Shown here: piece after piece, positions 1 through 56,046 of the stretch
How the letters are laid out: every line of letters starts with the position of its first letter
Position numbering within the stretch: position 1 is the first letter of the stretch
Source of the DNA: an uncultured Gammaproteobacteria bacterium
GTDB taxonomy: Bacteria; Patescibacteriota; Microgenomatia; UBA12405
NCBI GenBank assembly: GCA_964396145.1
Contig: CAYNEE010000003.1
Location: 1 to 58,534 of the forward strand
Direction of reading: 5' to 3'
DNA: 58,534 nt
Translations under genes and position numbers: made by a program
The notes under the pieces: model-generated
The model's database searches: none
Seen by the model: only the letters and a program-made list of their open reading frames with translations
What the model was told of the DNA's origin: nothing

Positions 1-1014
1 CTTGATTTATCTGGGGTCAAATTAGTTCCCGACATTTTTGGTCTGAGCAAAAAAAGAATTGAACTTATTGAGGAAAACCTTCCGGAAAATTTTCACAGTC
101 AGCCTGCCCCCAACCGGGATATTCTCAGTCGCCTGAAAAACTTTTTAAACAAGAAACAAGTTTTATCTGACTATAATTTTCTTTTTTACCTCAGTGACGG
201 CTCTTCACCCTTTCTTTTTTCCAAAAAAAATTTTCTCCATGTTCAGGTTCCTTTTGTCACTAAATTCAATTCTTCCGAAAAATTTTTGAATTCTCTTAAG
301 GCTCGTTTTATTGACAAGGTTATCTGCAATTCTCAATTCACCTCTAAATTCCTAACCTCTTTTCCTGAAAATAAAATAACTGTTCTGTATCCTCCGGTAG
401 ATGTTGCCAAACTGGAGGGGGATGTAGACAAACAAAAAATAATCCTATCTGTAGGACGTTTTGACAATATCCTCAATGCCAAAAAACAGGATGTTCTCAT
501 TGAGGCTTTTATTAAGTTTTATAAAAAATCCCCCAAAACTGACTGGAAACTAGTTCTGGCTGGAGGTAGTCGGGAAGTTCCTGAAAAGAACAATTATTTG
601 ATTCATCTCCAGGAAATGGCTAAAGACTACCCTATTCATTTTGTCGTCAATCCCTCTTTTGAGGAATTAAAAAAGATATATGCCCGCTCCTCAATTTACT
701 GGCATGCTGCTGGTTTTGAGGTTGATGAATACCTTACTCCTGAGCAAACCGAACATTTTGGTATGACTGTGGTTGAGGCTATGGATTCTGGTCTCGTCCC
801 CCTGGTCGTCGCCAAGGGTGGTCTCACTGAAATTGTTGATAATGAAAAAAATGGTTTTCTATGGCAAACTATCGACGAGTTGGCTGCCAAGACACATCTG
901 TTAATTGCTACCCCCAAGACCCTCATGGAAATGTCTGAGAAAGCTCACGAAAGTGCCCAGGCTTTTTCCAAAGAAGTCTTTGCCGAAAGATTACTAAAAC
1001 TCATCAGGTCATGA
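1..1014 (+). CDS. GT4-family (GT-B) glycosyltransferase, 5' end cut by the window edge
   Basis: Frame 1 is open from nt 1, with no stop before the TTG at 286 used by the ORF track. The C-terminal motif EHFGMTVVEAMDSGLVPLVVAKGGLTEIV is typical of GT4 enzymes. Confidence 0.8.
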   Translation, partial: LDLSGVKLVPDIFGLSKKRIELIEENLPENFHSQPAPNRDILSRLKNFLNKKQVLSDYNFLFYLSDGSSPFLFSKKNFLHVQVPFVTKFNSSEKFLNSLKARFIDKVICNSQFTSKFLTSFPENKITVLYPPVDVAKLEGDVDKQKIILSVGRFDNILNAKKQDVLIEAFIKFYKKSPKTDWKLVLAGGSREVPEKNNYLIHLQEMAKDYPIHFVVNPSFEELKKIYARSSIYWHAAGFEVDEYLTPEQTEHFGMTVVEAMDSGLVPLVVAKGGLTEIVDNEKNGFLWQTIDELAAKTHLLIATPKTLMEMSEKAHESAQAFSKEVFAERLLKLIRS

Positions 1015-1883
1015 GAATTTCTCTGGTTGTTACTAATTGGAACGGTCTTGATTTGCTTAAAAAAAATCTTACCGAAATTATAGAAAAATCACCCGAAGTC
1101 TTAGAGATAATTGTTGCCGATGATGCTTCTACCGACCAGTCCCTGCCCTTTATTAAAAATCTCCAAAAGAAGTATCCCAAACTCACTTATCTAAAACACT
1201 CTCAAAACGTTGGTTTTGGTCGAAACCTTAATTCTGCCGTTAAAAAATCAAAAGGGGACTTAGTCGTAATTTTAAACAATGATATCCGCCCCCATAAAAA
1301 CTACATTAAAAACTCTCTCTCTCATTTTAAAGATCCAAAGGTCTTAGGTGTCACTTTTGCTGAGCTGGGCAACGAAAATTATGCCCGTTTTTTTTGGAAA
1401 CAGGGTTATCTCCAATTTGAAAAGGGCCGCTCTCAAAAGACTCACATTTCCGGTTGGCTCAATGGCGGCACCTCCATTGTTCGCAAAGATTATTTTCTAA
1501 AACTAGGTGGTTTTGATCACGTGTACGAGCCCTACTACTTTGAGGACTCAGATTTTGGTTTCCGTGCGTGGAAATCAGGCTATACTCTTCTTTGGGAGCC
1601 AAAAGCTGTGGTTGAGCACAAGCACGAATCTACCATGTCCCGACTTCCCAAAAAACATTTAATTTATGTCAAAGAGAGAAATCACTTAATTTTTACCAAA
1701 AGGAACATTACCAACAAGAGTCTTTTGTTCAAAAACAAAATTTTTTCTTTTCTTCGCATCCTTTCCGGTCCTAATTATTTAAAAATAATTCTTGCCGCCC
1801 GCCGTCAACTCAAAAAATACCCTGCCCCCATCGTCTTTCCCAAACGCACCGATATAGAGATTTTGAGAATGTTTAAAAAATGA
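1011..1883 (+). CDS. GT2-family glycosyltransferase (WbbL/rhamnosyltransferase-like subtype)
   Basis: Motifs ISLVVTNWNG, IIVADDASTDQS, NVGFGRNLNSAV, ILNNDI and EDSDFGFRAW. ATGA overlap with the upstream gene. Confidence 0.8.
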   Translation: MRISLVVTNWNGLDLLKKNLTEIIEKSPEVLEIIVADDASTDQSLPFIKNLQKKYPKLTYLKHSQNVGFGRNLNSAVKKSKGDLVVILNNDIRPHKNYIKNSLSHFKDPKVLGVTFAELGNENYARFFWKQGYLQFEKGRSQKTHISGWLNGGTSIVRKDYFLKLGGFDHVYEPYYFEDSDFGFRAWKSGYTLLWEPKAVVEHKHESTMSRLPKKHLIYVKERNHLIFTKRNITNKSLLFKNKIFSFLRILSGPNYLKIILAARRQLKKYPAPIVFPKRTDIEILRMFKK

Positions 1884-3193
1884 AATCATTTACCAATGTT
1901 TGGAAAATCTTGTTGATTATTTTTTTTTCCCTCCTATTAAGAATTTTTCTATCAAACGTCACTGTTCCTGTTGGCGATATTTTGGTTCACCAGGAATGGG
2001 CTAAAAGTTTATATCAAGAGGGGACCCGGGGTTCATATTTTCGTGAAGGCTGGACATATTCTCCGCCGACTCAACCATCACTCATGATGCTGGCTTATTC
2101 AGGCTCAAGATCAATTTATGAAAACAGAAATGTATTTTCTGCTATGCACAATCTTTTAAAAATTCCCCCTGCCTCTGTTTTATTGGGTTTTCAAAAATAT
2201 GGTCAAATTTTAACTTTGAAAATCTGGGAATTTTTAGCAACTCTAATTATCGCCTTCGTTTTCTATTTTTATTTTTCCAACCAAAAGTCATCAAAAATTG
2301 GTCTAATAATTTTTACTTTAATTTTATTTCACCCCATCTTAATTTTTACAAATTCCGTTTGGGGACAAAATGATTTGATACCGACCATGTTTGCTTATAT
2401 CTCCTTTCTTTTAATTTTTTCAAAGTACATTTACTATTCACCCATCATTTTTTTCTTGGGGGTTTTATTTAAGCCAACAATAATAGTTCTAACACCATTA
2501 TTTGCCATTGTATTTTTATTTTTCTATTTTAAAAACAAAAAAAATTTTTTAATCCTATTACCAATCATGTTGATAATCACAAGCTTTCTCTATCTTTCTT
2601 TTAAACCATTTATACCTACAGGGATTTCTCCTATTAATTACGTTCGAGACATTTACAATCACCGCATTAGTAATTCCTCAAAAGGATTAAATTTAGCCTC
2701 AGTTTCGGCTTTCAATCTTTATTCTTTATTATTTAACATCGATAAAACCTATGCCACTAAAACTCCACTGATCAGCATAGGTCTGCTCCTTTATATCCTG
2801 ATAAATGTAGTTTTCATTTATCATTTTTTAAAATCTAAAAATCATAGTTTTTCTCATTTACTTTTTACGATTTATTTTCTAGGCCAAGGCAGTTTTTTAC
2901 TTTTAACTAATATGTTAGAAAGATATTTTTTCCCGGCACTTTTAGCGAGCATTTTGATAATGGTTTTATATTGGAAAAAGTTTGGTCGGCTTATGCTTTT
3001 ACAACAATTAATTTGGTTTTTGAATTTAATTTACGCCTATTACCATCGTCAAAGCGAATTTATTAGTTATGTTTTCAAAGAAAATAACTTCATCTTTGTT
3101 CGTTTGTTGTCTTTTTGTAGTTTGCTAATTTTTTTCTTATTGACCAAAAAATATTTAATTTTAGTCAAATTTAAAAATGAAAAATTTTCTTAG
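1880..3193 (+). CDS. Polytopic GT-C-type membrane glycosyltransferase, HERY-motif family (Gpi18/ALG6-ALG8-like, COG5542-like), paralogue A
   Basis: More than 10 hydrophobic segments. Loop-1 motif GDILVHQEW, then YSPPTQPSLMMLAY, WGQNDLIPTMFAY and C-terminal NMLERYFFPALL. The same motif order occurs in 3177-5225 (C-terminal half) and 6864-8150. Confidence 0.55.
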   Translation: MKSFTNVWKILLIIFFSLLLRIFLSNVTVPVGDILVHQEWAKSLYQEGTRGSYFREGWTYSPPTQPSLMMLAYSGSRSIYENRNVFSAMHNLLKIPPASVLLGFQKYGQILTLKIWEFLATLIIAFVFYFYFSNQKSSKIGLIIFTLILFHPILIFTNSVWGQNDLIPTMFAYISFLLIFSKYIYYSPIIFFLGVLFKPTIIVLTPLFAIVFLFFYFKNKKNFLILLPIMLIITSFLYLSFKPFIPTGISPINYVRDIYNHRISNSSKGLNLASVSAFNLYSLLFNIDKTYATKTPLISIGLLLYILINVVFIYHFLKSKNHSFSHLLFTIYFLGQGSFLLLTNMLERYFFPALLASILIMVLYWKKFGRLMLLQQLIWFLNLIYAYYHRQSEFISYVFKENNFIFVRLLSFCSLLIFFLLTKKYLILVKFKNEKFS

Positions 3194-5225
3194 TATTATT
3201 ATCCCCACCTGGAATACCGCAGAAATTACTCTAAAATGTGTCCGATCTCTTCAAAAATATCTCAAAAATTTTCCTCACGAAATTATTATCGTTGATAATG
3301 CTTCTACTGATAATACAGTCGCAAAGTTTAAAAAAGAAAAGGGGATTGTCCTCATCCAAAATAAAAAGAACTTAGGTTTTGCTAAAGCCTGCAATATTGG
3401 ATCAAAAAAATCAAAAGGGGATTATCTCTTTTTTCTCAACTCCGACATGATAGCCCTCGATAATAGCCTCATTAAAATGTGCGAATACCTAAAAAATAAC
3501 CCTAAAATAGGCCTTATTGGTCCAAAGTATCTTAATATCGACCGATCAGTTCAGGGCTCTGTTTTTCCACCCCAAACTCCTCTTAATGCTTTGAAAGAAT
3601 TTTGGCTGGGAAAAAATGCTTACTCCAAATACTCTCCTCGGTCTAAAAAACCCATCGAAGTCCATTCCCTTTCCGGTGGAGCCATATTAATTTCTAAGAA
3701 GTTGTTTAATGAGGTTGGCGGTTGGGATGAGCGTTATTTTATGTACTTTGAAGACCTAGAACTTTGTCGTCAGATCAAAAAGTTAGGTTATAAAATTTTT
3801 TATTATCCACAGTGTCGCTTCGTCCACCGCCATGGCGCCAGTGGCCAAAAACTGGCTGACTCCAGCAACCAATGGCGTCGACTAGTTCCCAGTTCGAAAA
3901 TTTATCATGGACATCTTACACACTACTATCTCTTTTCAATAACCTGGCTCGCTCAAAAAATCAATAAATTAAACATTAAAAAAATTTTATTACTCGCATT
4001 TATTATAAGATTATTTTTACTTCCATGGATATATCACGGTGATATTACAGTAACTTATTGGTGGGGAAAATTTGCCGCCGAATTCACCTGGAGAGGTTAC
4101 TATGATTGGCTAAATTTTGGCGGATACGGTCGCCCTGACCAACCAATGCTAAATATCTTTTATGTTTGGCTTGTTCGTCTTTTTTATTTACTAGTCCACC
4201 AAATTATTTGGTTTATTAATGTAAATATTCCTGCTTTTCCCTCAAAAATAATGAGCTGGTTTTTCCTGCATGGCAACCAGGTTTTATTGAAACTACCCAT
4301 GATTATTGCGGATACCGCAATTATCTATTTTGTATATTCCTTTGTTAGCAAATCTTTGTCAAAAACTAAAGCAACTTTTGCTGCTATTTTTCTGGCACTT
4401 TATTTACCCATGATTTATAACAGTGCTCTTTGGGGGAGCGGAGATAGTATTATCAATCTCCTGGCTTTACTCGCTATTTATTTCCTTTATCATAAAAAAT
4501 ATCTTCTTTTTACTTTCCTCTTCCTTTGTTCTATTTTGTACAAGTTTTCTCTGGCTATATGGTCACCAGTAATTCTTACAATTCTTATTTATCAACGAAT
4601 TAAACTCGCAGACATTATTAAATCAGTTGGTCTTTCTGTAATTTTTATTTACCTAGTCTCTTTTCCTTTTGCCACAAAAAATCCTTTTATCTGGTTTTGG
4701 GAAACTATAACTCAAAAAATCATGCCCGGTGCAATGCCACAAATTACTTCTAATGCTATGAATTTCTGGGGAGTTATATTTGGATTGAAGCCGCGTCTTG
4801 ATGAAACTTTAGTTTTTAATCTTATTTCTTTTAGACAACTTTCCTTGTTAATTTGTCTAGTTTTTTACATTTATATCTGCGTAAAACTTTATAAAAACTT
4901 CTCCATTAAAAATGTTTTACTAACCCTGGTTCAAATTACTCTGGTAACCTTTACTTTCATGACCCGCATGCACGAGCGATATACCTATCCAGCCCTGATC
5001 CCTTTACTACTTTTATCGCTATATGATCGGAAGTTTTTTAAATACTTTATTATTTTATCTGTCACCCATTGTTTGAACGTATATAATTGGTGGTGGATCC
5101 CCAAAATCCCCTTTCTCATTACTTTACTTAAATCAGAAGTAACTACGAGAATTATTAGCCTAATTCAAACTTTATTAACAATTAGCCTCCTCTCGACAAA
5201 GTTATTTACCTCTAAAAATGAATAA
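3177..5225 (+). CDS. Bifunctional fusion: N-terminal GT2 glycosyltransferase (about aa 1-260) plus C-terminal HERY-motif GT-C membrane glycosyltransferase (about aa 262-682), paralogue B
   Basis: GT2 part: LSIIIPTWNT, IIIVDNASTDNT, NLGFAKACNIG, FLNSDM, FEDLELCRQIKKLGY. GT-C part: NIKKILLLAFIIRLF, HGDITVTYWW, GRPDQPMLNIFYVW, WGSGDSIINLLAL, RMHERYTYPALIPLL. No stop or start codon at the junction. Confidence 0.75.
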   Translation: MKNFLSIIIPTWNTAEITLKCVRSLQKYLKNFPHEIIIVDNASTDNTVAKFKKEKGIVLIQNKKNLGFAKACNIGSKKSKGDYLFFLNSDMIALDNSLIKMCEYLKNNPKIGLIGPKYLNIDRSVQGSVFPPQTPLNALKEFWLGKNAYSKYSPRSKKPIEVHSLSGGAILISKKLFNEVGGWDERYFMYFEDLELCRQIKKLGYKIFYYPQCRFVHRHGASGQKLADSSNQWRRLVPSSKIYHGHLTHYYLFSITWLAQKINKLNIKKILLLAFIIRLFLLPWIYHGDITVTYWWGKFAAEFTWRGYYDWLNFGGYGRPDQPMLNIFYVWLVRLFYLLVHQIIWFINVNIPAFPSKIMSWFFLHGNQVLLKLPMIIADTAIIYFVYSFVSKSLSKTKATFAAIFLALYLPMIYNSALWGSGDSIINLLALLAIYFLYHKKYLLFTFLFLCSILYKFSLAIWSPVILTILIYQRIKLADIIKSVGLSVIFIYLVSFPFATKNPFIWFWETITQKIMPGAMPQITSNAMNFWGVIFGLKPRLDETLVFNLISFRQLSLLICLVFYIYICVKLYKNFSIKNVLLTLVQITLVTFTFMTRMHERYTYPALIPLLLLSLYDRKFFKYFIILSVTHCLNVYNWWWIPKIPFLITLLKSEVTTRIISLIQTLLTISLLSTKLFTSKNE

Positions 5226-6852: not shown

Positions 6853-6863
6853 GATTGTGTAAT

Positions 6864-8150
6864 ATGCTTCTCCCAAAAATTAAAATAGATATCAAAAAAA
6901 TCTTATTGTCGGCTTTTGTTTTAAGAATTATTTTAGTGTTTATATCCCAATCTCACCCTGACATATTAAACCACGTTGACTGGGGTAACCGCTTGCTGGA
7001 GCTTGGTCCCTATAAATTTTATGAAAATATTTTTTGGGGAGTCTCTTGGCCAAACCAACCTTTTGCCAGTATGTATCTTTTTGCTCTTATTAAACTTGTA
7101 CGCGATTTAATTTTCAATATTTTTTTGTTTTTAAACAATCAATTTTCCCTCTTTCCTTCTTTTGTTATTCCTGTTTTAGAGCAAAATTTACAAATTTGGT
7201 TGCTTAAACTGCCTTTTATTTTAGCCGATCTTGGTATTGCCTTTTTTGTTTATAAATTTTTAACTGAGAGAAAAAATAAACATGCACTTTTAGCCGCCAT
7301 CATGTTCCTTTTCAATCCGATTGTCATCTACAACTCAACCATCTGGGGACAAACTGACAGTCTCATTAATTTACTTATTCTGGCCGGATTTTACTTTGTC
7401 TATAAAAAACATTATTTTTTAGGAATTTTTCTAACTCTAATTTCTTTTACCTTTAAACTGTCTCTAATTATCTATTTACCTTTATTCTTAATTTTATTAT
7501 GGAAGCGTCGCAATGATTGGAAAAAAATATTATTCTCATTTTTGTTTACCTTTGTTACCATTGTTCTTTTGGCGTGGCCTTTTTCAATTTATCCCAATCC
7601 ACTCAAGTGGCTTCTCTATCTTTATCAAAACCGGGTTTTACCCCGACAGGGCAATATGCTCAACGGCAATGCCTTTAATTCTTGGTTTATCCTCTACGGC
7701 CCTGACTTTTCTCTTTCAGACTCTCTGCCACTCCTGGGTATAGCCGCCAAAAAAATCTCTTATGCTTTCACTATTATTGTTTTGTTTTTTATCTATTTAA
7801 AAATATTCATTAGAAAATCTACTTCTACTGATTTCATTTTTGCCCTCTTTTTGACTGCTTTTACCGCCTTTTTATTTTTAACCAATATGCATGAACGTTA
7901 TCTTTACCCTATCTTTCCATTGTTTAGTTTATTAATTTTTCTTATACCCAAATATTTTAATCTTAAACACCTGGTTATTATCAGTTTCATTCACTTACTC
8001 AATCTCTATAACCTTTGGTTTTATCCTCTTATCACCCCACTAAAATCTATTTTAATCTTTTCAGACTTCCTAGTCTGCAAAATTCTCAGTATAATTCTCT
8101 TAGTTTATTATGTTAAATACCTCTACGCCTATTTTAAGAAGAGTTACTAA
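6864..8150 (+). CDS. HERY-motif GT-C membrane glycosyltransferase, paralogue C
   Basis: I prefer the ATG at 6864 over the track's TTG at 6855. Motifs IDIKKILLSAFVLRII, HPDILNHVDWG, WPNQPFASMYLFAL, WGQTDSLINLLIL and NMHERYLYPIFPLF. It is closest to the C-terminal half of 3177-5225. Confidence 0.55.
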   Translation: MLLPKIKIDIKKILLSAFVLRIILVFISQSHPDILNHVDWGNRLLELGPYKFYENIFWGVSWPNQPFASMYLFALIKLVRDLIFNIFLFLNNQFSLFPSFVIPVLEQNLQIWLLKLPFILADLGIAFFVYKFLTERKNKHALLAAIMFLFNPIVIYNSTIWGQTDSLINLLILAGFYFVYKKHYFLGIFLTLISFTFKLSLIIYLPLFLILLWKRRNDWKKILFSFLFTFVTIVLLAWPFSIYPNPLKWLLYLYQNRVLPRQGNMLNGNAFNSWFILYGPDFSLSDSLPLLGIAAKKISYAFTIIVLFFIYLKIFIRKSTSTDFIFALFLTAFTAFLFLTNMHERYLYPIFPLFSLLIFLIPKYFNLKHLVIISFIHLLNLYNLWFYPLITPLKSILIFSDFLVCKILSIILLVYYVKYLYAYFKKSY

Positions 8151-16831: not shown

Positions 16832-17888
16832 GGTCGGCATCGACGTCAGCCCCCTTAGCGATGGCAATTCCAAAAGGGGAGTCGGCTACTATACCCGCCA
16901 CCTAGTTGAGGCTCTTCAAAAAGAAATTAAAAATAACCCTGATTATCAGCACTATCAAATTCATTTAATTGAAGATTCTAGACTTAAGACTGAAGATTTT
17001 GATCTTATCCACTATCCCTATTTTGACCCTTTCAAGCTGACCTTACCTCCTACCACTAAACCCTACGTTGTCACTTGTCACGACCTCATTCCTCGCGCTT
17101 TTAAAAAACATTTCCCTGTTGGTGTAAAAGGAGAAATAAAATGGCTCATTCAAAAATATCGTTTACAAAATTCCGACTATATAATTTGCCCATCGCATTC
17201 GGCTAAATATCAAATTCTTGACCAAATTAAATATCCCGCCGAAAAAATATATGTGACTTACGAGGCTGCCTCTTCTAATTTTAAGCCTCGCCCTCTCAGT
17301 TCTAAATTAAAAAATATTTTTAAAAAATATAAATTGCCTAAAAAATTTGTCCTATTTGTCGGTGATGTCAATTGGAATAAAAATGTCCCTGGGCTCGCTA
17401 AAGCCTGTATAGCTCTTAAATACCCTCTAATTATCGCTGGCGGTGCCGCCACCAAAGAGGTTCCCGACCACCCTTGGACTCAAGACATCCTTTGGCTTCA
17501 ACGTCAACGGTCTCCTTTTTTAAAACTGCTTGGTTTTGTACCAGATGAAGACTTAACCCTACTCTATAATTTAGCTACCATATATTGCCAACCTTCTTTT
17601 TCTGAGGGCTTTGGTCTGCCTCTGGTTGAAGCCATGCAGTCAGGTACACCCGTGGCTTACTCTCAGGAAAGTTGCCTACCTGAAATTATGGATTTTTCTG
17701 GAGAATTTTTTAATCCTTACTCTCAAATTTCCATAAAAAGGGCTCTAAAAAAGCTCTGGAATTCACCTCAGCTGCGACGTGAATGCTCCATTTTAGGCCA
17801 AAAAAGAGCTCAATTTTTCTCTTGGCAAAGCACAGCCTTGTCTACACTAGCTGTTTATAAACTAGTCGAATTTGATGAAAAAAAATAA
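16818..17888 (+). CDS. GT4-family glycosyltransferase
   Basis: I prefer the ATG at 16818 (MKKFKVGIDV) to the TTG at 16806. Motif EGFGLPLVEAMQSGTPVAYSQESCLPEI. Confidence 0.8.
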   Translation: MKKFKVGIDVSPLSDGNSKRGVGYYTRHLVEALQKEIKNNPDYQHYQIHLIEDSRLKTEDFDLIHYPYFDPFKLTLPPTTKPYVVTCHDLIPRAFKKHFPVGVKGEIKWLIQKYRLQNSDYIICPSHSAKYQILDQIKYPAEKIYVTYEAASSNFKPRPLSSKLKNIFKKYKLPKKFVLFVGDVNWNKNVPGLAKACIALKYPLIIAGGAATKEVPDHPWTQDILWLQRQRSPFLKLLGFVPDEDLTLLYNLATIYCQPSFSEGFGLPLVEAMQSGTPVAYSQESCLPEIMDFSGEFFNPYSQISIKRALKKLWNSPQLRRECSILGQKRAQFFSWQSTALSTLAVYKLVEFDEKK

Positions 17889-18678
17889 AAGTCATTTCCT
17901 TTCAGTTATTATTCCTGCCTACAAACAAGCTAAAACCATTAAAAAAGACCTCCGTCATATTCATAGCACACTGGAAAAAATCCGCTATCCCTACGAAATG
18001 CTGGTTGTGGTAGACGGTACCACTGTAGATACTACTTATAAACTGGCCAAACAATTAAATCTAAGTAACCTAAAAATTCTTGGTTACCCGAGTAATCATG
18101 GTAAGGGCTACGCTCTCCGCTATGGTATGGCTCGAGCCAAAGGTGACTATGTTGCCTTTATTGATGCCGGTATGGAGATTGACCCCAATGGTATTTCTAT
18201 GCTTTTGGAGCACATGGAATGGTATGACGCTGACATTATCATCGCCTCTAAGCGTCACCCCGCTTCTCAAGTGGCTTATCCGCTCCAGAGAAAAATTATC
18301 AGTAAACTTGCTCAAATTTATTCAAAAGTTTTTCTTGACTTAAATTTAACCGACACTCAGGCTGGTTTAAAAATTTTTAAAAGAGAAGTTTTGGAAAAAG
18401 TTTTACCTCGTCTTTTAGTCAAAAACTATGCCATTGATTTAGAGATGCTCTCAGTCGCAAAGCATCTTGGCTTTAAAAAAATTTATGAAGCCCCGATAAA
18501 ACTAAATTATGATTTTGATAGTCTGACCCACGCCACCGGTCTCAAAATAATTTTTAATAGTTTTAGGGATGCTATGGCTATTTTTTATCGTCTTCGGATG
18601 TTGCATTATTACGACGATAAAAACCATCGTCGTTGGCGCTTTGACAAAGAATTAAAAATGAAAGTCAACACCGGATGA
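17875..18678 (+). CDS. GT2 polyprenyl-phosphate sugar synthase-like protein (DPM1/GtrB/ArnC-like)
   Basis: LSVIIPAYKQAKTI, LVVVDGTTVDTT, GKGYALRYGMARAKGDYVAFIDAGMEIDP and TDTQAGLKIFKREVL. This is the D..G(F/L)K motif of DPM1-type enzymes. Confidence 0.6.
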   Translation: MKKNKSHFLSVIIPAYKQAKTIKKDLRHIHSTLEKIRYPYEMLVVVDGTTVDTTYKLAKQLNLSNLKILGYPSNHGKGYALRYGMARAKGDYVAFIDAGMEIDPNGISMLLEHMEWYDADIIIASKRHPASQVAYPLQRKIISKLAQIYSKVFLDLNLTDTQAGLKIFKREVLEKVLPRLLVKNYAIDLEMLSVAKHLGFKKIYEAPIKLNYDFDSLTHATGLKIIFNSFRDAMAIFYRLRMLHYYDDKNHRRWRFDKELKMKVNTG

Positions 18679-28200: not shown

Positions 28201-29001
28201 ATGTTAGCCCTAGTCAAGGAATTTCGTGACGTCGTCAAGTGGCGGGAGCTTCTTTGGCAAATGGTTGCCCGGGAAGTCAAAACCAGATATAAGCAATCAA
28301 TTTTGGGCTATTTTTGGGTGATACTAAATCCTTTAGCTCAGATGATCGTTATGAGCTTTGCTTTTTCCCTCATCATGCGTATTCCCACCAATGCTGCTGG
28401 CAATATTCCTTATTCCATATTTCTTTTTACCGCCCTCCTCCCTTGGAATCTATTTGCTACTTCTCTTAACTCCTCTGCATCATCCTTGGTCAATTCTAGT
28501 TCTTTGATTACTAAAGTTTACTTTCCCCGAACTATCCTGGTTATTGCCACCATTTTGGCCAAAATTGTTGACTTCCTTTTTGCCAGCCTAATTCTGGTCG
28601 CCTATATAATTATTTACCGTCTAACCATTAATTTAAATATTCTCTGGGTAATTCCTATATTTTTTATTCAACAAATTTTTACCTTAGGCTTAGCCCTATT
28701 TTTTTCGGCTGCCAATCTCTTGTACCGGGATATTCAATATTTACTTGGCCTTATTCTAATTCTCTGGATGTATATCTCGCCAGTGATATACCCCATGGAA
28801 ATGGTCCCGGAAAAATACCGTTTCGTTTTTCAAATTAACCCCATTGCTGTTATCATCAACGCTTATCGCCAAACAATTTTGGGCGGTGGGAGTCCCAACT
28901 ACCTTAGCCTCGCCATTGCTCTTGTTGTCTCTCTAATTACCCTATTTATCGGATTTTCCTATTTTAAATCACGGGAAAAAGTCTTCGCGGACAATATTTA
29001 A
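28201..29001 (+). CDS. ABC-2 type polysaccharide/teichoic-acid exporter permease (Wzm/TagG-like)
   Basis: REVKTRYKQSILGYFWVILNPL signature and six hydrophobic segments. Immediately followed by its ATPase. Confidence 0.8.
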   Translation: MLALVKEFRDVVKWRELLWQMVAREVKTRYKQSILGYFWVILNPLAQMIVMSFAFSLIMRIPTNAAGNIPYSIFLFTALLPWNLFATSLNSSASSLVNSSSLITKVYFPRTILVIATILAKIVDFLFASLILVAYIIIYRLTINLNILWVIPIFFIQQIFTLGLALFFSAANLLYRDIQYLLGLILILWMYISPVIYPMEMVPEKYRFVFQINPIAVIINAYRQTILGGGSPNYLSLAIALVVSLITLFIGFSYFKSREKVFADNI

Positions 29002-29002
29002 A

Positions 29003-29749
29003 ATGAAAAATAAATTATCCATGGTTATCAAATTTGAAAAAGTCACTAAAAAGTTTTCACTACAAAACCAAAAAACCTTCAAAGAATTCTTACCCGCACT
29101 CATCCGTGGCGAAGAAACCAAAAAAGGCTTTACCGCTCTTGACAATATTTCTTTTGAAATCAAAAAAGGGGAAACTGTCGGTATTATCGGTCCAAATGGC
29201 TCAGGCAAATCTACTATTCTCAAGCTTATTGCCGGTGTCATGTCACCCACTTCTGGAAAAATTTCTGTCCACGGTAAAGTTTCCCCTCTCATAGAATTAG
29301 GTGCTGGTATGCACCCAGAGCTGACGGGTCGAGAAAATATTTACCTCAATGGTGCTATTTTAGGATTATCCCGAAAAGAAATTGATAAAAATATTGAAAA
29401 TATTATTGATTTTTCTGAAATTAGAGAATTTATCAACCAACCGGTTAAGCATTACTCTTCAGGAATGTACATGCGCCTGGCCTTTTCTATTGCCATCCAC
29501 GTCAATCCCGAAATTCTTCTTATCGATGAAATCCTGGCGGTAGGGGATACCGAATTTCAAAAAAAATGCTTTAAAAAAATGGAAGAATTCAAAAAATCAA
29601 AAGAAATCACCGTCATCCTCGTTTCCCATGATCTAAAAAGAGTCAGTGACTTTTGTAACCGGGTTATCTATATTAATGATCATTTAATTCAAGCTATCGG
29701 TCCTTCGAAAGAAGTATGTCATCAGTACCTAAAGACAACACTAAATTAA
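29003..29749 (+). CDS. ABC polysaccharide exporter ATP-binding protein (Wzt/TagH-like), nucleotide-binding domain only
   Basis: Walker A GPNGSGKST, ABC signature YSSGMYMRLAFS and Walker B LLIDEILAVGD. At 248 aa there is no C-terminal carbohydrate-binding extension. Confidence 0.85.
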   Translation: MKNKLSMVIKFEKVTKKFSLQNQKTFKEFLPALIRGEETKKGFTALDNISFEIKKGETVGIIGPNGSGKSTILKLIAGVMSPTSGKISVHGKVSPLIELGAGMHPELTGRENIYLNGAILGLSRKEIDKNIENIIDFSEIREFINQPVKHYSSGMYMRLAFSIAIHVNPEILLIDEILAVGDTEFQKKCFKKMEEFKKSKEITVILVSHDLKRVSDFCNRVIYINDHLIQAIGPSKEVCHQYLKTTLN

Positions 29750-35291: not shown

Positions 35292-35299
35292 ATAGTTTA

Positions 35300-35322
35300 T
35301 ATTATACTTTCAAAGTATAATA
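35300..35322. promoter_or_regulatory. Perfect 11-bp inverted repeat (TATTATACTTT-C-AAAGTATAATA) in a divergent intergenic region, with a TATAAT hexamer readable on each strand
   Basis: Read directly from the sequence. It sits in the 42-nt gap between the start codons at 35291 (-) and 35334 (+). Confidence 0.35.
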
Positions 35323-35333
35323 AATACAGAACC

Positions 35334-36107: not shown

Positions 36108-36816
36108 TTACAGGCAATCCACCAAGAAAAAAAGACACTTTGTCTAGCCTTTTCATTAAAGTACTATTTTTAAACAAACTTGCGGGGATAAATTCTGTGG
36201 TTTGTAGTAGTTTAATTTTAAAACCAGGAAAATATTTTTTAATTAACATGGGGTTGATTGCCCATTCGTCCTTTGAATCTCCTGCCTTTTTCTTTAAAAA
36301 AGGAATAGATTTTATCAAGAAAACCACTGGATTTAATATATTTGGCTCATAAAAATACACTTTACCTTTTTGTTTTAACACCCTATTAATTTCTTTATAA
36401 ACGGTTTTTATATCAAGGTGGTGTAAAATATAAAAACCTATAACTGCATCAATCGAATTGGTTCTGATACTTTTCATCTCGTAAGCGCTCTCTACACAAA
36501 AATTAACATTTTTGTATTTTTTACACTTTTCTTTTGCCACTTTAATCATCCCAGCAGAAATATCAGTAGCAGTTATCTTAAAATTATTCTTCTTAGCAAT
36601 ATGTCTAGTGTATTCACCTGTACCACATCCTATCTCTAGAATCCTTGGTTTTAGTTTTTCATTAATTTTTAAATTTTTAATACAGTGATTGGCTTTTTTT
36701 AATATTTTATATTTTGTAAACACAGAATTATATCCATAATTTTTATCGTATGACCTAGAAAAACTATCAAAATACTTTTTTTCTGAAGATTCTAATTTTT
36801 TGATATTACTCTTCAT
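36061..36816 (-). CDS. Class I SAM-dependent methyltransferase
   Basis: ILEIGCGTGEYTRHI, ITATDISAGMI, IDAVIGFYILHHL and LKQKGKVYFYEP. Confidence 0.75.
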   Translation of the reverse strand: MKSNIKKLESSEKKYFDSFSRSYDKNYGYNSVFTKYKILKKANHCIKNLKINEKLKPRILEIGCGTGEYTRHIAKKNNFKITATDISAGMIKVAKEKCKKYKNVNFCVESAYEMKSIRTNSIDAVIGFYILHHLDIKTVYKEINRVLKQKGKVYFYEPNILNPVVFLIKSIPFLKKKAGDSKDEWAINPMLIKKYFPGFKIKLLQTTEFIPASLFKNSTLMKRLDKVSFFLGGLPVIKYFGGSVVFLLEKK

Positions 36817-36817
36817 T

Positions 36818-41832: not shown

Positions 41833-42756
41833 TTAAAAAAGTAACCACAAACCTCCTATTAATGCGTTCAAAACTCCCAATGTTCCCAAAAAAGTTGACA
41901 CCAAAAGCATCTGTTCGGGCTGATAGCCGACACTAACAAAAAAATAGACAAATAAGTTTTCTCTCATCCCAAAACCTGCCCAAGAAATCGGTAATGTCAA
42001 AATAAGCGATATTACCGGTAAAAAAATTAATATATCCATGTAATTCATACCAACCCCCAGAGCTCTGCTTATCATCCACACCTGAAATAACCAAAATAAT
42101 TGAGCGCCAAGAGATATGATATAGCACTTCCAAATTCTGTCTTTGTGACTTTTTTTCAAAATGTCCATGACCTCGATTACTCTTGTCCATGTTTTACGCT
42201 TTAAGAATAATTTTTCAAAATCCACCCGAAAAACTATGACATAAAAAACCATCATCAATACACTTAATCCTATAAATATCCACATTAAATAATTAGGAAA
42301 ATTATATTTCAAAACTTTTCCTATTAATAAAGAAATGGTCGCTGTTGTCAAAAAAGCTCCAAAACCTATAATCCTGTCGATTAAAGTTGAGCTAGCTAAT
42401 TTCATCTTAGAAATATCTGGATACTTTTTTATTAAAGTTGTCCACTTGACCAAGTCTCCACCCAAGGCCGTGGGGAAAAAAAGGGCAAAAAATGCCCCCG
42501 AATAAGCTGCTTTGGTAAAGTCTAAAATTTGTTTAAACTTTGGCTTACCTAAATTCAATATTGCCCATCGCCAACCCCCAATCAAAACTGATATCGCCAT
42601 ATAACCTATCAAAATCGTTACCCACCACCATTTCACCTGGGAGATCTCAACCAAAAGGCGCCATACATCCACCTTCCTAAAAGCCCAGTAAATCAATACT
42701 CCTGACAAAATTACCTGGAGAATTTTCCAATTTGAAAGTTTTTTTATTATTTCCAC
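41833..42756 (-). CDS. LPG_synthase_TM / UPF0104 flippase-like membrane protein, with no synthase domain
   Basis: GTG start. Eight hydrophobic segments. Motifs GGWRWAILNLG and FPTALGGDLVKW resemble the R-W...P..GGD..R/K motifs of this family. Confidence 0.55.
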   Translation of the reverse strand: MEIIKKLSNWKILQVILSGVLIYWAFRKVDVWRLLVEISQVKWWWVTILIGYMAISVLIGGWRWAILNLGKPKFKQILDFTKAAYSGAFFALFFPTALGGDLVKWTTLIKKYPDISKMKLASSTLIDRIIGFGAFLTTATISLLIGKVLKYNFPNYLMWIFIGLSVLMMVFYVIVFRVDFEKLFLKRKTWTRVIEVMDILKKSHKDRIWKCYIISLGAQLFWLFQVWMISRALGVGMNYMDILIFLPVISLILTLPISWAGFGMRENLFVYFFVSVGYQPEQMLLVSTFLGTLGVLNALIGGLWLLF

Positions 42757-47754: not shown

Positions 47755-48650
47755 ACAGTCCGCTTTTATCAATCATCATCGCCTCCTTCAACACTTCAAA
47801 GCTGACTCAGGATTGCCTTGATTCCATTCGTCTGGACAAAGGCCTTAAAGACATCCCCCACGAAATTATTGTCATTGACAACGGCTCTAGTGATGATTCG
47901 GTCAAAATGCTAAAAAAGCAAAAAAATATAAAACTTATATTAAACCATCAAAATAAAGGGTTTGCTCAAGCCAACAACCAAGGGATTAAAGCCGCGAAAG
48001 GCAATTATTTGCTCTTTCTCAACTCTGACACAATTATCCTTCACTCTGCTATCAGCCAAAGCCTAAACTGGCTCTCAGCCCATCCCGAAGCCCATGGCTG
48101 CACCGCTCAACTGCTAAACCCCGACAAAAGTATTCAACCTACCGGTGGCTACTTTCCTAACTTGCTAAATATTTTTACTTGGTCTCTGGGACTTGATGAT
48201 TTACCTCTCGTCAACAAAATTATCAAACCCTTTCATCCTCACCCGCCTTGGTTTTATACCCGGGATTCATTTTACAAATCCGATCATTCTCAGGACTGGC
48301 TCACCGGCGCCTTTTTTTTAGTCAGAGCCTCAATCGTCAATGAAACTCAGGGTTTTGATGAAAATTATTTTATGTACGGTGAAGAAATGGAATGGCAATA
48401 TCGGATGCATCTTAAACTTCCCGATTCCAAACTTTGGTATTTAGTCGGTCCTCAGATTATTCATCTGGGCGGAGCTTCAGCTCTTAAAAAAAGCGACCCC
48501 CTTTTAAACGAGTATAAGGGAGTTTTGGCTTTTTTTAAAAAACATCGTCCCCTTTGGCAGACTAAATTTGTTAAAAAGATATTACAACTTAATGCTCTTT
48601 TACGTGGTTTTGTTTCCCAAAACCATCGACAACTATGGTCAAAAATTTAA
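47751..48650 (+). CDS. GT2-family glycosyltransferase (WbbL-like subtype)
   Basis: ATG at 47751 in an ATGA overlap. Motifs LLSIIIASFNT, IIVIDNGSSDDS, NKGFAQANNQGI, FLNSDT and GEEMEWQYRM. Confidence 0.8.
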   Translation: MNSPLLSIIIASFNTSKLTQDCLDSIRLDKGLKDIPHEIIVIDNGSSDDSVKMLKKQKNIKLILNHQNKGFAQANNQGIKAAKGNYLLFLNSDTIILHSAISQSLNWLSAHPEAHGCTAQLLNPDKSIQPTGGYFPNLLNIFTWSLGLDDLPLVNKIIKPFHPHPPWFYTRDSFYKSDHSQDWLTGAFFLVRASIVNETQGFDENYFMYGEEMEWQYRMHLKLPDSKLWYLVGPQIIHLGGASALKKSDPLLNEYKGVLAFFKKHRPLWQTKFVKKILQLNALLRGFVSQNHRQLWSKI

Positions 48651-50017
48651 ATCCTTTTCGCGTCATCTTGGCAGTTTTAGTTGCCTTTATTCCCCTTTAT
48701 CCTAAATTTCCACTATTTAATGTAGAATCAACCTATGTTGCCATCCGTTTAGATGATATTGTCCTGGCTTTTTGTCTTTTGGTCTGGCTTATCTATCAGA
48801 TTAAACATCAGTTTCCTGTTTTTAAACAAAAAATTACTCCTCTTTTTATTGCCTATTTTATCGCTATCTCAATTAGCACACTTAATGCTTTACTGATCTT
48901 TAAAACCAATAGTAATCAACTCCTCTTACTCAATGCTTTTCGACGTTTTGAGTACATGTCAGTTTTTTTTATCACTCTAGAGGCAATCAAAAAACGTCGC
49001 GATTTTCTCTATGTTTACCTCTTTTTTATTTTTGCTATGTTTGGGGTAGCGGCCTATGGTTATGGTCAAAAATTTTTGCAATTTCCGGTCATCTCCACCA
49101 TGAATGAAGAATTCTCAAAAGGTCAGTTATTACAGATGAATATCTGGACCCGTATTAGCTCCACCTTTGCCGGTCACTACGACCTGGCCGCTTACCTGAG
49201 TATTACATTGGTCATTAGCCTGTTTCTTTTTATCATTATCAAAAATAAATGGCTCAAGCTTAGTTCCCTTCTTGTTTTTTTAGTTGGCTTTCATCTCTTG
49301 ACCTTAACTGCTTCCAGAATTTCTATCTTTGCTTTTTGGGGCAGTGCCATTCTTGGACTTATAATGCTTCGCAAATATTTGTGGGTTATTCCCGTTAGTC
49401 TTTTAGTCATTCTCAGTATTTTTAACTCAAACGACCTTAAGCAACGCCTTATTGCTACTATTCCCAATTTTAAATCCATGGTTAAACCCAGTCAGGCACC
49501 AGTCCAACCAACTCCAACTCTCCTAGCCACGCCGACTCCAGGAAAAACCAACCAAAAACCTATCAAAATCTCGCCAACCGTTTTTCGCAACCCCCCTGTT
49601 GAAGAATTTATTCCAATCGATTCCGACGTTGGCGTAGCTCGTTCCGGTGAAATCCGCTTTAATGTTGAGTGGCCCAGAGCCATAACCGCCTTTAGAAAAA
49701 ACCCAATAACCGGTACCGGTCTTGGTTCTATCACTATGGCCACAGACAATGATTATCTCCGGTTTTTGGGAGAAAGTGGCCTTTTTGGTCTAATTACTTT
49801 TATAGTGATTTTTATCTACTTTCTACTCAAAACCTGGCCCATCTTAAAAATCAAAAAACTAAATTTTTACCATCAACTCTCACTCGTCTTTTTTTCTGCC
49901 ATGGTCTGTATCTGGGCGAACGCTATTTTCATTGATGTTTTTGAAGCTTCAAAAGTAGCTTATACTATATGGATCATCATGGGACTTTATTATAAAAATT
50001 TGGAAATGAAATCATGA
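48635..50017 (+). CDS. O-antigen ligase/polymerase family (Wzy_C/WaaL-like) membrane protein
   Basis: About 10 TM segments. TLTASRISIFAFWGS, a large loop, GTGLGS and NDYLRFLGESGLFGL resemble the WaaL family motif (H)NxYLxxLxExGxxG. Confidence 0.6.
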   Translation: MVKNLNPFRVILAVLVAFIPLYPKFPLFNVESTYVAIRLDDIVLAFCLLVWLIYQIKHQFPVFKQKITPLFIAYFIAISISTLNALLIFKTNSNQLLLLNAFRRFEYMSVFFITLEAIKKRRDFLYVYLFFIFAMFGVAAYGYGQKFLQFPVISTMNEEFSKGQLLQMNIWTRISSTFAGHYDLAAYLSITLVISLFLFIIIKNKWLKLSSLLVFLVGFHLLTLTASRISIFAFWGSAILGLIMLRKYLWVIPVSLLVILSIFNSNDLKQRLIATIPNFKSMVKPSQAPVQPTPTLLATPTPGKTNQKPIKISPTVFRNPPVEEFIPIDSDVGVARSGEIRFNVEWPRAITAFRKNPITGTGLGSITMATDNDYLRFLGESGLFGLITFIVIFIYFLLKTWPILKIKKLNFYHQLSLVFFSAMVCIWANAIFIDVFEASKVAYTIWIIMGLYYKNLEMKS

Positions 50018-54330: not shown

Positions 54331-55388
54331 TCCTCTCCGGAGGCACCGGACCTAGACTCTGGCCACTTTCTCGGGTCGAAAAGCCCAAACAATTCCTGAC
54401 TCTCTTTTCTAAAAATTCCCTCTTAAAAGAAACTGTCCTTCGCGCCAAAAAACTTGTCCCTCTCAAAAATATTTTTATTGTCACCAACTACAAATACACA
54501 AGTCTTATTAAAAAAGACCTTGGCACCTCTTTCCCCTCTGCCAATATTCTCTCCGAACCACAAAAAAAGAATACGGCCATGGCCCTCATCTACGCCTCGG
54601 CAGTTATTTCCCGCAAAGACCCCGATGCCGTTATCACTAGTTTCCCTTCTGACCACTATATCGGCCGTCTTGACAAATTCATTAAAAATATTAATCAGGG
54701 TGTTAATACTAGTTTAACCAATAAAATTGTCGTCTACGGCATTAAGCCCGACTCTCCCAACCCTGCCTACGGTTATATCGTCACTGACGATAAACTAAAA
54801 GTTAAAAAATTCATCGAAAAACCTAGCATTTCTATTGCCCAGGATATTATTAATCGAGGTCACGCTTTTTGGAATAGTGGTATTTATACCTTTAAAGTTT
54901 CACATCTATTAAGTGAATTTAAAAAACACCAACCCGAATATTTACCTCTATATGACCAAATTTATAATCAGCCCACAAAAAGCAAAATTATCCAGAAAAT
55001 TTACAGTCTTGCCCCAGCATTGGCCCTGGATGTAGCTATTTCTGAAAAATCAAAAAATCTTCATCTCATCCCAGCCACCTTTACTTGGAGCGACATTGGG
55101 GAGTGGTCGGCTATTCACCGTCAAATTGCCGGTAAAAAAACTCAAGTAGCCACTTTAACCACCACCCAAAAACTAGTCGAAATTAACTCCAAAAATTGTC
55201 TAGTCCATTCTTCACCTAAAAAAATTATCGGTTTAGTCAATGTTGAAGATGTCGCTGTCATCGATACTCCAGATGCACTTTTAGTTTGCAATTTAAAAAA
55301 CAGTGGCTCCTACCAGGTCAAAGATCTCATTACTAAATTGGTTTCTAACCCTAAATTAAAATCTTTTTTTACCGGTAAGCATGACTAG
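54315..55388 (+). CDS. manC: Mannose-1-phosphate guanylyltransferase-like sugar nucleotidyltransferase (no C-terminal isomerase domain)
   Basis: VILSGGTGPRLWPLSRVEKPKQFL, EPQKKNTAMAL, FPSDHYI and WSDIGEW. Confidence 0.75.
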   Translation: MHYIVILSGGTGPRLWPLSRVEKPKQFLTLFSKNSLLKETVLRAKKLVPLKNIFIVTNYKYTSLIKKDLGTSFPSANILSEPQKKNTAMALIYASAVISRKDPDAVITSFPSDHYIGRLDKFIKNINQGVNTSLTNKIVVYGIKPDSPNPAYGYIVTDDKLKVKKFIEKPSISIAQDIINRGHAFWNSGIYTFKVSHLLSEFKKHQPEYLPLYDQIYNQPTKSKIIQKIYSLAPALALDVAISEKSKNLHLIPATFTWSDIGEWSAIHRQIAGKKTQVATLTTTQKLVEINSKNCLVHSSPKKIIGLVNVEDVAVIDTPDALLVCNLKNSGSYQVKDLITKLVSNPKLKSFFTGKHD

Positions 55389-56046
55389 TAGAAATATCCC
55401 TTTTTATGCCCTAAGGTCAGCTCTTTTTGACCCCATCAAACGGATAATAGACATTATCAGCTCTGTAATTTTAATAATTATTTTTTCTCCAGTTTTACTG
55501 ATAACTGCCATTATTATCAAACTCACCTCTCCGGGGCCGATAATTTTCAAGCAAAAACGCGTTGGTCAAAACCGAGAGTTTCAAATGTTTAAATTTCGTT
55601 CCATGAGAGTAGGGGACAACGATAAATTTTTAAAAGAAAATTATCCCGAACTTTGGAAAAAATATAAAGCCAATGACTGGAAACTTTCAGCCAAAGAAGA
55701 TCCTCGAATTACTCCCATCGGTCGTTTTATCCGCTCTACTTCTATTGACGAAATGCCTCAATTTTTAAATGTTCTTATGGGAGAAATGAGTCTGGTCGGC
55801 CCCCGGGCCTATCGTGACGAAGAGCTTAAAGAATATTCCCATAAATACCCTAAAACCAAAGCCTACATTGCCGATATCCGTTCCGTTAAGCCTGGTATTA
55901 CCGGCCCATGGCAAGTCTCAGGCCGAAACGAACTCCCCTTTGAAAAACGGGCCAAAATGGACTCTGATTACATCAAAAATCGATCACTTAGAGAGGAAAT
56001 CTATATTATCTTCAAAACTCCCTTCGCCATGTTTTCTAACTGGTAA
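55381..56046 (+). CDS. Small monotopic polyprenyl-phosphate phosphoglycosyltransferase (PglC/WbaP C-terminal 'bacterial sugar transferase' type); initiating enzyme
   Basis: KRIIDIISSVILIIIFSPVLLI (re-entrant helix), SPGPIIFKQKRVGQNREFQMFKFRSM and DEMPQFLNVLMGEMSLVGPRA. Confidence 0.9.
   Translation: MTSRNIPFYALRSALFDPIKRIIDIISSVILIIIFSPVLLITAIIIKLTSPGPIIFKQKRVGQNREFQMFKFRSMRVGDNDKFLKENYPELWKKYKANDWKLSAKEDPRITPIGRFIRSTSIDEMPQFLNVLMGEMSLVGPRAYRDEELKEYSHKYPKTKAYIADIRSVKPGITGPWQVSGRNELPFEKRAKMDSDYIKNRSLREEIYIIFKTPFAMFSNW

Follow-up and report, generated by a model that had tools for sequence, protein, structure and literature searches.

The 58,534-nt contig CAYNEE010000003.1 (GenBank assembly GCA_964396145.1), analyzed over its full length and referred to below as the window, derives from a Shapirobacteria-like bacterium of the candidate phyla radiation (CPR). 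It carries a gene in which a glycosyltransferase of family GT2 is joined in frame to a membrane glycosyltransferase of the GT-C type. The gene lies at 3177..5225 on the plus strand and encodes, from an ATG start and without internal stop, 682 aa followed by the stop codon. As regards the architecture alone, we consider it practically certain that this is a real fusion of a GT2 with an ALG6-like GT-C. Its main interest lies in the recurrent coupling of one GT2 subfamily to diverse GT-C enzymes, the single gene being a labile state of a common gene pair and not a unique invention. As to function, we favor with about even confidence a two-faced enzyme that performs one step of a lipid-linked glycan pathway at the inner face of the membrane and another step of the same pathway at the outer face.

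The fused gene is not an assembly artifact

The first-pass annotation had warned that the continuous frame might reflect a misassembly or an indel. This concern is answered by an independent assembly, in which frame and junction are the same, and by the existence of further fused homologues. A contig from a different sample (L089) aligns to window positions 3195-11225 with 97.3% identity over 8031 nt (215 mismatches, 0 gaps). It carries the same open reading frame (ORF) as 3177..5225 and matches window positions 3901-4000, junction included, exactly. The near-identical 681-aa protein encoded on this contig (P0001, from another sequencing run) was recovered in a protein search, while a 683-aa protein from a JGI metagenome (P0002) has the same architecture and is 58% identical over 99% of the length of the fused protein. 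The nearest relatives bear the names Candidatus Shapirobacteria or Patescibacteria, and those homologues that have a source name are labeled as hypothetical, "Gpi18-like mannosyltransferase," or "GT2 family glycosyltransferase."

A pair of genes wrongly joined through a homopolymer error would be in keeping with the homopolymer runs at the junction and with the split state being the norm among relatives. The independent sample and assembly with their identical junction speak against it, as do the other fused homologues in ENA, NCBI, JGI, and Logan data and the fact that a separate membrane gene would have no start codon. Indeed, there is no in-frame ATG, GTG, or TTG from residue 225 to residue 323, and the next one, M324, lies past the first transmembrane helix (TM1) and the catalytic loop; the membrane domain with TM1 can therefore be made solely as part of the fusion. 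We regard an artifact as extremely unlikely.

The N-terminal half is a complete GT2 domain

Residues 1-233 (3177..3875, plus strand) form a cytoplasmic GT-A/GT2 catalytic domain, as assigned by PF00535, PF13641, and Foldseek. Pfam PF00535 (Glycos_transf_2) covers residues 6-180 with an E value of 1.1e-25, its 90.9 bits lying above the gathering threshold (23.3) for GT2/GT-A membership, and PF13641 (Glyco_tranf_2_3) covers residues 5-229. All GT2 motifs quoted in the first-pass annotation are found in the translation. An alignment of 12 fused and split homologues revealed as invariant the positions D40-N41-x-S43-x-D45, N65-x-G67, N88-S89-D90, and E192-D193, as well as H217-x-H219-G220-x-S222-G223 and the tail Q232-W233-x-R235-L236...Y243-H244-G245. 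The Pfam score and the invariance of the catalytic motifs in these relatives bear out the view that the N-terminal half is a complete GT2. N88-S89-D90 (3438..3446, plus strand) is the metal/nucleotide-sugar motif, equivalent to DxD, and E192-D193 (3750..3755, plus strand) is the "ED" motif. An ED motif is typical of inverting GT2 enzymes in which a sugar hydroxyl is deprotonated; by analogy, E192-D193 would supply the catalytic base for a hydroxyl acceptor.

In NCBIfam, the GT2 half scores best with TIGR01556, a model of WbbL-type rhamnosyltransferases (residues 19-258, E = 6e-20), reaching 71.6 bits versus a curated cutoff of 200.55. The earlier description as a "WbbL-like GT2" thus holds for the GT2 assignment and does not establish membership in the WbbL family, the term denoting a resemblance in sequence only. 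Among the NCBIfam models for polyprenyl-phosphate glycosyltransferases (PPGT), ArnC was matched with an E value of 0.0081 (15.2 bits) and PpgS was unmatched. The similarity across both the donor and acceptor halves that defines the GtrB/DPM1/ArnC/PpgS class was not found in the fused GT2. Structural comparison was in line with this. Foldseek returned for the GT2 half only generic GT-A structures (GalNAc-T2, TarP, and K4CP, the chondroitin polymerase); DPMS and GtrB were not among the top 50 matches of the full-length model, in which GalNAc-T, TarP, and K4CP do appear, and DPMS (5mlz) aligns to residues 5-120 only, i.e., to the nucleotide-binding half.

The C-terminal half has an ALG6-like GT-C fold

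Residues 267-682 (3975..5222, plus strand) constitute an ALG6-like GT-C_A membrane glycosyltransferase domain according to a structural model, Foldseek, and a family profile. BLASTP aligned residues 271-653 with residues 17-398 of a 431-aa standalone paralogue in the window (6855..8150, plus strand; 34% identity, E = 5e-46) and residues 288-682 with a more distant third paralogue (1880..3193; 24% identity, E = 6e-12). By eye, "KINKLNIKKILLLAFIIRL" of the fused protein pairs with "KIKIDIKKILLSAFVLRI" at the extreme N terminus of the 6855..8150 paralogue; since the alignment reaches the first residues of that protein, the membrane domain is full length, as the first-pass annotation had maintained.

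Sequence models were largely uninformative for this half. Taken alone, it had no Pfam or NCBIfam match at threshold, the sole match being PMT_2 at an E value of 0.011; phmmer against PDB sequences gave no match, and the fused protein did not match Pfam Alg6_Alg8 (PF03155, CAZy GT57) even at E ≤ 10. Weak matches to Alg6_Alg8 were nevertheless present in 29 of 60 relatives (best, 1e-6), and a profile of the 60 matched GPI-mannosyltransferase I (Gpi14) sequences with an E value of 4.6e-6. The fold was assigned only through this profile search and a model of the membrane domain alone, the full-length model yielding GT-A matches only in Foldseek, with the membrane half silent. The AlphaFold2 model of residues 261-682 (pLDDT 94.4, pTM 0.93) found yeast ALG6 (6snh) as its first PDB match (E = 4.5e-6, TM score 0.70, 438 columns), followed by Gpi14, ALG9, ALG3 (TM score 0.62), ALG12, and then STT3/PglB. 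The first five are all Dol-P-hexose-dependent enzymes, and the overall fold is that of solved GT-C_A enzymes. The membrane half is thus predicted to be ALG6-like by fold and is not a demonstrated GT57 member. Judging from the fold, it should use a polyprenyl-monophosphate sugar as its donor.

GT-C_A enzymes share a conserved module of seven transmembrane helices, and their first luminal loop forms two helices, the first of which bears the catalytic base (PMC13503287). In the full-length model, D289 (YHGD; 4041..4043, plus strand) sits at the start of helix 288-303 in extracytoplasmic loop 1, just after TM1 (residues 267-281), so that its predicted position is that of the acidic residue in the first helix after TM1 of GT-C_A enzymes. 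It is the sole invariant column in an alignment of 79 sequences and is invariant in a 60-sequence alignment too. On this modeled position and its invariance, D289 is a candidate catalytic residue. A second conserved site, the "HERY" motif M598-H599-E600-R601-Y602 (4968..4982, plus strand), lies in a loop between late transmembrane helices. In the 60-sequence alignment, M598, E600, R601, and Y602 are invariant and H599 is kept in at least 90% of sequences; further invariant residues of the membrane half are K372, W419-G420, and K456. His378 is essential in ALG6 (PMC10859629); in ALG3 it is His371, from a late luminal loop, that makes contact with the donor phosphate (PMC13503287). By analogy, H599 may be equivalent to ALG6 His378, and the MHERY motif would form the donor-phosphate site. 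ALG6 as the best structural match, the invariant D289, and the conserved HERY motif together uphold the identification of the C-terminal half as a GT-C.

Linker and predicted topology

The two domains are connected by residues 234-266 (3876..3974, plus strand), which comprise a conserved NQWRRLVPSSKIYHG tail, a helix at residues 246-263, and the Lys-rich stretch KINKLNIKK directly before TM1. The tail is kept in all members of the GT2 subfamily of the fused gene, whichever membrane domain comes next. In the full-length AlphaFold2 model (pLDDT 88.2, pTM 0.74), a low-confidence segment at residues 220-245 (pLDDT <50) precedes the helix. Domain mapping by structure prediction and profile HMMs, which the first-pass annotation had called for, places PF00535 on residues 6-180 and the ALG6-like fold on residues 267-682.

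A hydropathy scan detected no hydrophobic segment N-terminal of residue 267. This coarse method agrees with a soluble N-terminal half followed by a first transmembrane segment at 267-285, its count of transmembrane helices being unreliable. With no hydrophobic segment before residue 267 and a Lys-rich stretch before TM1, the GT2 is therefore placed inside and D289 outside, which fits the proposed combination of a cytoplasmic GT2 with an outward-facing GT-C.

The former gene boundary can be traced to 3955..3984 (plus strand), where an A6 run (3955-3960) and an A7 run (3978-3984) are found and the ATG of the membrane gene is absent. A shift of one nucleotide at the junction into either of the other frames leads to a stop within 5 to 7 codons.

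The fusion arose from an overlapping gene pair

Related genomes contain other fused homologues as well as split versions, both of which the first-pass annotation had proposed to look for. Close orthologues of the membrane half (42-69% identity) that occur as standalone proteins of about 425 aa form about 80 clusters. Six split loci were analyzed (L002/L010, L005, L006, L007, L011, and L013), in five of which the pair involves the close orthologue itself. All six have a GT2 of the same subfamily (264-276 aa) directly upstream of a membrane ORF and overlapping it by 28-52 nt, with the membrane ORF in the -1 frame relative to the GT2. At L006, the orthologue (P0053) has no GT2 directly upstream, and the overlapping pair involves a second, MHERY-bearing membrane ORF of 449 aa. 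In most of the split loci, the ATG of the membrane gene lies within the GT2 codons CAA AAA TGG CAA AAA. The split orthologue at L002, for example, has its ATG at 8001, inside the GT2 3' end that reads ...CAA AAA TGG CAA AAA ATC TTT GGA AAA AAA TAA. In both the window gene and P0002, this internal ATG is gone and the frames are joined.

Because the split relatives overlap in the -1 frame and the ATG is lost in the fused genes, the sequences indicate that the fusion originated from a translationally coupled gene pair in which a small indel within the A-rich overlap brought the two genes into one frame and eliminated the internal ATG. The fusion is accordingly not unique but a labile form of a gene pair that is conserved, with its overlap, in relatives.

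The window itself contains a split pair directly upstream of the fused gene. Its first gene (1011..1883, plus strand) is a standalone GT2 of another subfamily (PF00535, 84 bits; 24% identity to the fused GT2), and its second (1880..3193, plus strand) is an ALG6-like paralogue with the motif variant "MLERY," matched to the fused protein by BLASTP at an E value of 6e-12; the two overlap by 4 nt. They are referred to here as the 1011-type GT2 and the 1880-type membrane domain, the standalone paralogue at 6855..8150 defining the 6855-type.

The pair is not constant between strains. In L089, the place between the 1011-type GT2 and the fused gene is taken by a 717-aa YfhO-family gene (340-2493) instead of the 437-aa ALG6-like gene of window positions 1880-3193. 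That contig captures the 1011-type GT2 only in its last 231 nt, with 99.6% identity to the window (97.3% downstream). The two strains differ here by a swap of the GT-C cassette that follows the 1011-type GT2.

The GT2 subfamily is fused repeatedly to diverse membrane domains

Three more full-length fusions came from an exhaustive phmmer search against 1.84 billion representatives, namely P0121 (697 aa), P0123 (653 aa), and P0125 (688 aa); the match to each ran through in one stretch. According to BLASTP, the membrane domain is of the 6855-type in P0121 and P0123 (48.6% and 42.6% identity, respectively) and of the 1880-type in P0125 (38% identity). The GT2 domains of all three are 46-49% identical to the fused GT2 and about 26% identical to the 1011-type. 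The GT2 subfamily of the fused gene is hence found fused to all three ALG6-like paralogue types (P0002, P0121, P0123, and P0125). It is also fused to PMT/PMT_2 (P0082, P0087), PF10131 (P0086 and others), and YfhO (P0095, P0103) domains, in each case with the same junction point, after ...SSKIYHGxxxHxL...W..QK.

Fused and split forms can be closely related. One 90% cluster contains the fused P0121 and P0263 (697 and 701 aa) together with the standalone GT2 proteins P0264 and P0265 (278 aa), which end in "GQKWQKTKKYLG"; the state therefore differs between very close relatives. In a neighbor-joining tree of the membrane domains (no bootstrap), the window fusion and P0002 are each nested among standalone proteins, and the window membrane domain is 69% identical to the standalone P0003 versus 55% to P0002. 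The GT2 halves, however, pair the window fusion with P0002 by a narrow margin (63% versus 60-62%), and the junctions of the two are collinear. We claim independent fusions only across the three paralogue types, not for the window fusion versus P0002.

No published description of GT2-GT-C fusions was found in open-access papers and bioRxiv preprints, and the same sources gave nothing relevant on envelope glycosylation in CPR/Patescibacteria.

Two of the homologous loci carry unexpected taxonomic labels. A contig labeled "Candidatus Pacearchaeota archaeon UBA284" (L009, DAKN01000111.1) encodes a membrane protein 69% identical to the C-terminal half, and one labeled "uncultured Gammaproteobacteria" (L014, CAYXDV010000004.1) encodes a GT2 that shares 50% identity with the N-terminal half. 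The two contigs probably belong to Patescibacteria and were misbinned.

Proposed mechanism and alternatives

With their catalytic motifs intact, both halves look active. The first-pass annotation had suggested that the protein might channel a lipid-linked intermediate or act as a two-step synthase, and either role may apply. In the mechanism that we favor, the GT2 half would work at the inner face, extending a polyprenyl-(P)P-linked glycan by a sugar taken from a nucleotide sugar, the glycan intermediate would then be exported, and the GT-C half would add a further sugar at the outer face. The donor for the second step would come from a separate synthase, a candidate for which is the 268-aa GT2 encoded at 17872..18678 (plus strand). 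This protein is GtrB/DPM1-like by its NCBIfam matches (PpgS, 1.1e-14; PgfS, 1.9e-13; AglJ, 2e-11; ArnC, 1.6e-9), all of which are below the curated cutoffs, and from its sequence it is likely to be a polyprenyl-phosphate sugar synthase supplying donors to the GT-C enzymes. The fusion, like the overlap in relatives, would fix a 1:1 stoichiometry and the proximity of the two steps. The architecture, the fold, the conserved motifs, the recurrence of the fusion, and its origin are established by the analysis, from which the substrates, the order of the two reactions, and the physical coupling of the halves are inferred.

A step in the assembly of a lipid-linked glycan is favored because the best matches of both halves, the WbbL type and ALG6, act on polyprenyl-PP-linked glycans. 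An acceptor-side role for the GT2 half is favored because a dedicated PPGT-like GT2 exists separately at 17872..18678; the relative similarity of the fused GT2 to the WbbL-type and ArnC models (6e-20 versus 0.008) points the same way. Also in its favor are the invariant ED motif, the confinement of the DPMS alignment to the nucleotide-binding half, the PF00535-only genes of 260-266 aa in orthologous clusters, and the presence in the window of genes for an initiating phosphoglycosyltransferase, GT4s, a Wzy_C-like protein, an ABC-2 exporter, and a flippase-like LPG_synthase_TM protein. That the same GT2 subfamily is fused to several kinds of GT-C supports a functional coupling of the two activities. 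Several points weigh on the other side. All NCBIfam matches are far below the curated cutoffs, so that "WbbL-like" and "not PPGT-like" are to be read as relative similarities only. In the model, the low confidence of linker 220-245 leaves it uncertain how the two domains lie with respect to each other. One GT2 subfamily combined with many GT-C families is the pattern of GtrB with its serotype-specific GtrC partners, which favors a donor-synthase role for the GT2, and the coexistence of fused and split forms among close relatives means that the fusion itself may be selectively near-neutral.

The principal alternative is that the GT2 half charges polyprenyl phosphate on the inside, as GtrB, CsbB, ArnC, and DPM1 do, and that the GT-C half uses the product on the outside. 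We hold this to be possible but consider the acceptor-side mechanism, at about even confidence, preferable. The protein would then amount to a three-component glycosylation system in one polypeptide, possibly with direct handover of the product, a version about which we are equally tentative. GT2 and GT-C gene pairs are a hallmark of three-component systems (PMC11127046), and the fact that one GT2 subfamily is paired or fused with six or more kinds of GT-C recalls the conserved GtrB with its variable GtrC. The replacement of the ALG6-like gene behind the 1011-type GT2 by a YfhO-type gene in L089 fits as well, as does the presence in the window of nine GT-C-like genes versus one recognizable PPGT-like gene. 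The fused GT2, however, barely matches the PPGT models, to which the 17872 protein is matched at 1e-9 to 1e-14. It also keeps the invariant ED motif expected for deprotonation of a sugar hydroxyl, its top 50 structural matches lack DPMS and GtrB, and no flippase gene of at least 150 codons adjoins the fused gene. Not being of the PPGT class, the GT2 weakens the simplest version, in which the enzyme makes its own donor. A variant that we think rather unlikely is that the GT2 subfamily with the NQWRRLIPSSKIYHG tail is an unrecognized, non-GtrB polyprenyl-phosphate sugar synthase that, where it is fused or translationally coupled to a GT-C, hands its lipid-linked product directly to that GT-C, perhaps with a GT-C-mediated flip; if true, the fused protein would be a self-contained, single-polypeptide trans-membrane glycosylation machine.

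Two further explanations concern the junction and not the chemistry. The A-rich junction could be prone to slippage and toggle between fused and split states in populations or on ribosomes, the window gene representing one state of a switch that we judge unlikely in general and likewise in its specific forms, phase variation by homopolymer indels or -1 frameshifting in the split relatives. The A6 and A7 runs, at which a one-nucleotide shift soon meets a stop, would allow it, as would the -1 frame of the membrane ORF at six of six split loci and the occurrence of fused and standalone forms (697, 701, and 278 aa) within one 90% cluster. At L002 (8019-8028), moreover, the GT2 ends GGA AAA AAA TAA, which contains an A_AAA_AAA heptamer at which a -1 slip enters the membrane frame, and L013 (3786-3801) has T_TTT_TTA and T_TTA_AAA. 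But canonical heptamers are present in only two of the six split loci, with none near the stop in L005, L006, L007, and L011, and programmed -1 frameshifting was rejected on this count as a conserved fusion route in the split relatives. A/T richness is in any case expected where Lys codons occur in a genome whose GC content is about 35%. The ATG of the membrane gene is retained in the split genes but lost in the fused one, in which a slip would leave no means of producing the membrane half, and the junction is identical in the 97.3%-identical strain. Alternatively, a chance indel may have joined the genes with no functional meaning, one half being impaired or the fusion simply tolerated. The standalone state of most orthologues (about 80 clusters) and the toggling between fused and split forms in close relatives would agree with such an accident. 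We nevertheless find it very unlikely, in view of the intact catalytic motifs in both halves, the retention of the fusion in a strain with 215 single-nucleotide polymorphisms and, with collinear junction, in a 58%-identical homologue, and the recurrence of fusions with several GT-C families at the same junction point.

Relation to known systems and significance

The closest structural counterpart of the membrane half is ALG6 (GT57; Dol-P-Glc:Man9GlcNAc2-PP-Dol glucosyltransferase; PDB 6SNH); in both, the first helix of loop 1 bears an acidic residue and a late loop bears a conserved His. The membrane half differs in that identity is only 17%, no Pfam threshold is reached, the bacterial domain has about 420 aa, and the fused protein carries an N-terminal GT2. 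GPI-mannosyltransferase I (PIG-M/Gpi14, GT50) and ALG3, ALG9, and ALG12 have the same GT-C_A fold and occupy Foldseek ranks 2 to 5; their TM scores are lower than that of ALG6, their variable modules differ, and they are eukaryotic enzymes of the endoplasmic reticulum (ER). On the GT2 side, the WbbL-type rhamnosyltransferases (TIGR01556), which act on polyprenyl-PP-linked acceptors, are the best family match and have the ED motif in common, but the score falls short of the family cutoff and the NQWRRLIPSSKIYHG tail of the fused protein leads into a membrane domain.

Mycobacterium tuberculosis Ppm1 is a GT2 synthase fused to a membrane domain, the two being encoded by separate genes in Mycobacterium smegmatis and Corynebacterium. 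It thus resembles the present case in combining a GT2 with a membrane partner, fused in some lineages and split in others, but its partner is Lnt-like instead of a GT-C and its GT2 is a DPM1-class synthase.

Three-component systems (GtrA/GtrB/GtrC, CsbB/GtcA/YfhO, and ArnC/ArnE-F/ArnT) likewise couple a cytoplasmic GT2 genetically to an outward-facing GT-C, with variable partners (PMC11127046). In contrast to these, the GT2 described here is not of the GtrB/DPM1 class, the genes are fused or overlapping, and no GtrA-type flippase was found next to them among ORFs of 150 aa or more. GT-C genes are present in the window, and its PPGT-like gene is 13 kb away. The fused protein is in this sense a known, three-component-like logic in a new form.

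Gene fusions serve as "Rosetta stone" evidence that two proteins cooperate. The repeated joining of this GT2 subfamily with at least six kinds of GT-C suggests a physical coupling of inner-face and outer-face glycosylation in CPR bacteria, whose envelopes are essentially unstudied, and the fused protein offers a single-polypeptide object for structural and biochemical tests of such coupling. Bacterial enzymes that are nearest in solved structure to eukaryotic ALG6 also bear on the origin of the ER-luminal glycosyltransferases.

Gene content of the window

The window as a whole is a glycan supercluster of about 58 kb. Positions 1880-16058 hold nine consecutive membrane ORFs with GT-C character on the same strand, an unusually dense battery of lipid-sugar-dependent transferases. 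Three of them are ALG6-like (those starting at 1880 and 6855 and the C-terminal half of the gene at 3177), four are PMT/PMT_2-like proteins of about 545-560 aa (8110, 9735, 11224, and 14406), and two (5218 and 12881) have no Pfam match. Orthologous clusters also contain genes of 260-266 aa that match PF00535 only.

Elsewhere, the window encodes a Bac_transf initiating phosphoglycosyltransferase (55381..56046, plus strand), a Wzy_C-like protein (48635..50017), an ABC-2 exporter (28201..29749), and, adjoining GalE, a flippase-like LPG_synthase_TM protein that resembles the MprF flippase domain (41833..42756, minus strand). Many GT4 and GT2 genes, UDP-glucose dehydrogenase, and methyltransferases are present as well. 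The protein at 41833..42756 could serve as the flippase of the pathway and that at 55381..56046 as its priming enzyme. A scan that covered ORFs of 150 aa or more detected no GtrA, MATE, or SMR flippase, the LPG_synthase_TM protein being the sole flippase-like candidate in it, and a tRNA scan of the window found no tRNAs.

Positions 28201-31605 encode an ABC-2 permease and an ABC ATPase, together with a 629-aa protein that has two GT2 domains; this arrangement is reminiscent of polysaccharide export modules of the Wzm/Wzt type. Located among glycosyltransferase genes is one for a B12-binding radical SAM protein (19591-21102), which may serve in sugar or glycan modification. Finally, positions 32000-37000 form a low-GC island (0.24-0.28 versus about 0.37 elsewhere). 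It comprises a 648-aa DUF7657/DUF7654 protein (31598-33544, minus strand), an FkbM methyltransferase, an S-adenosylmethionine (SAM) methyltransferase, a GT2, and a 590-aa ORF without Pfam match. This island could be a glycan module that was acquired horizontally or is hypervariable.

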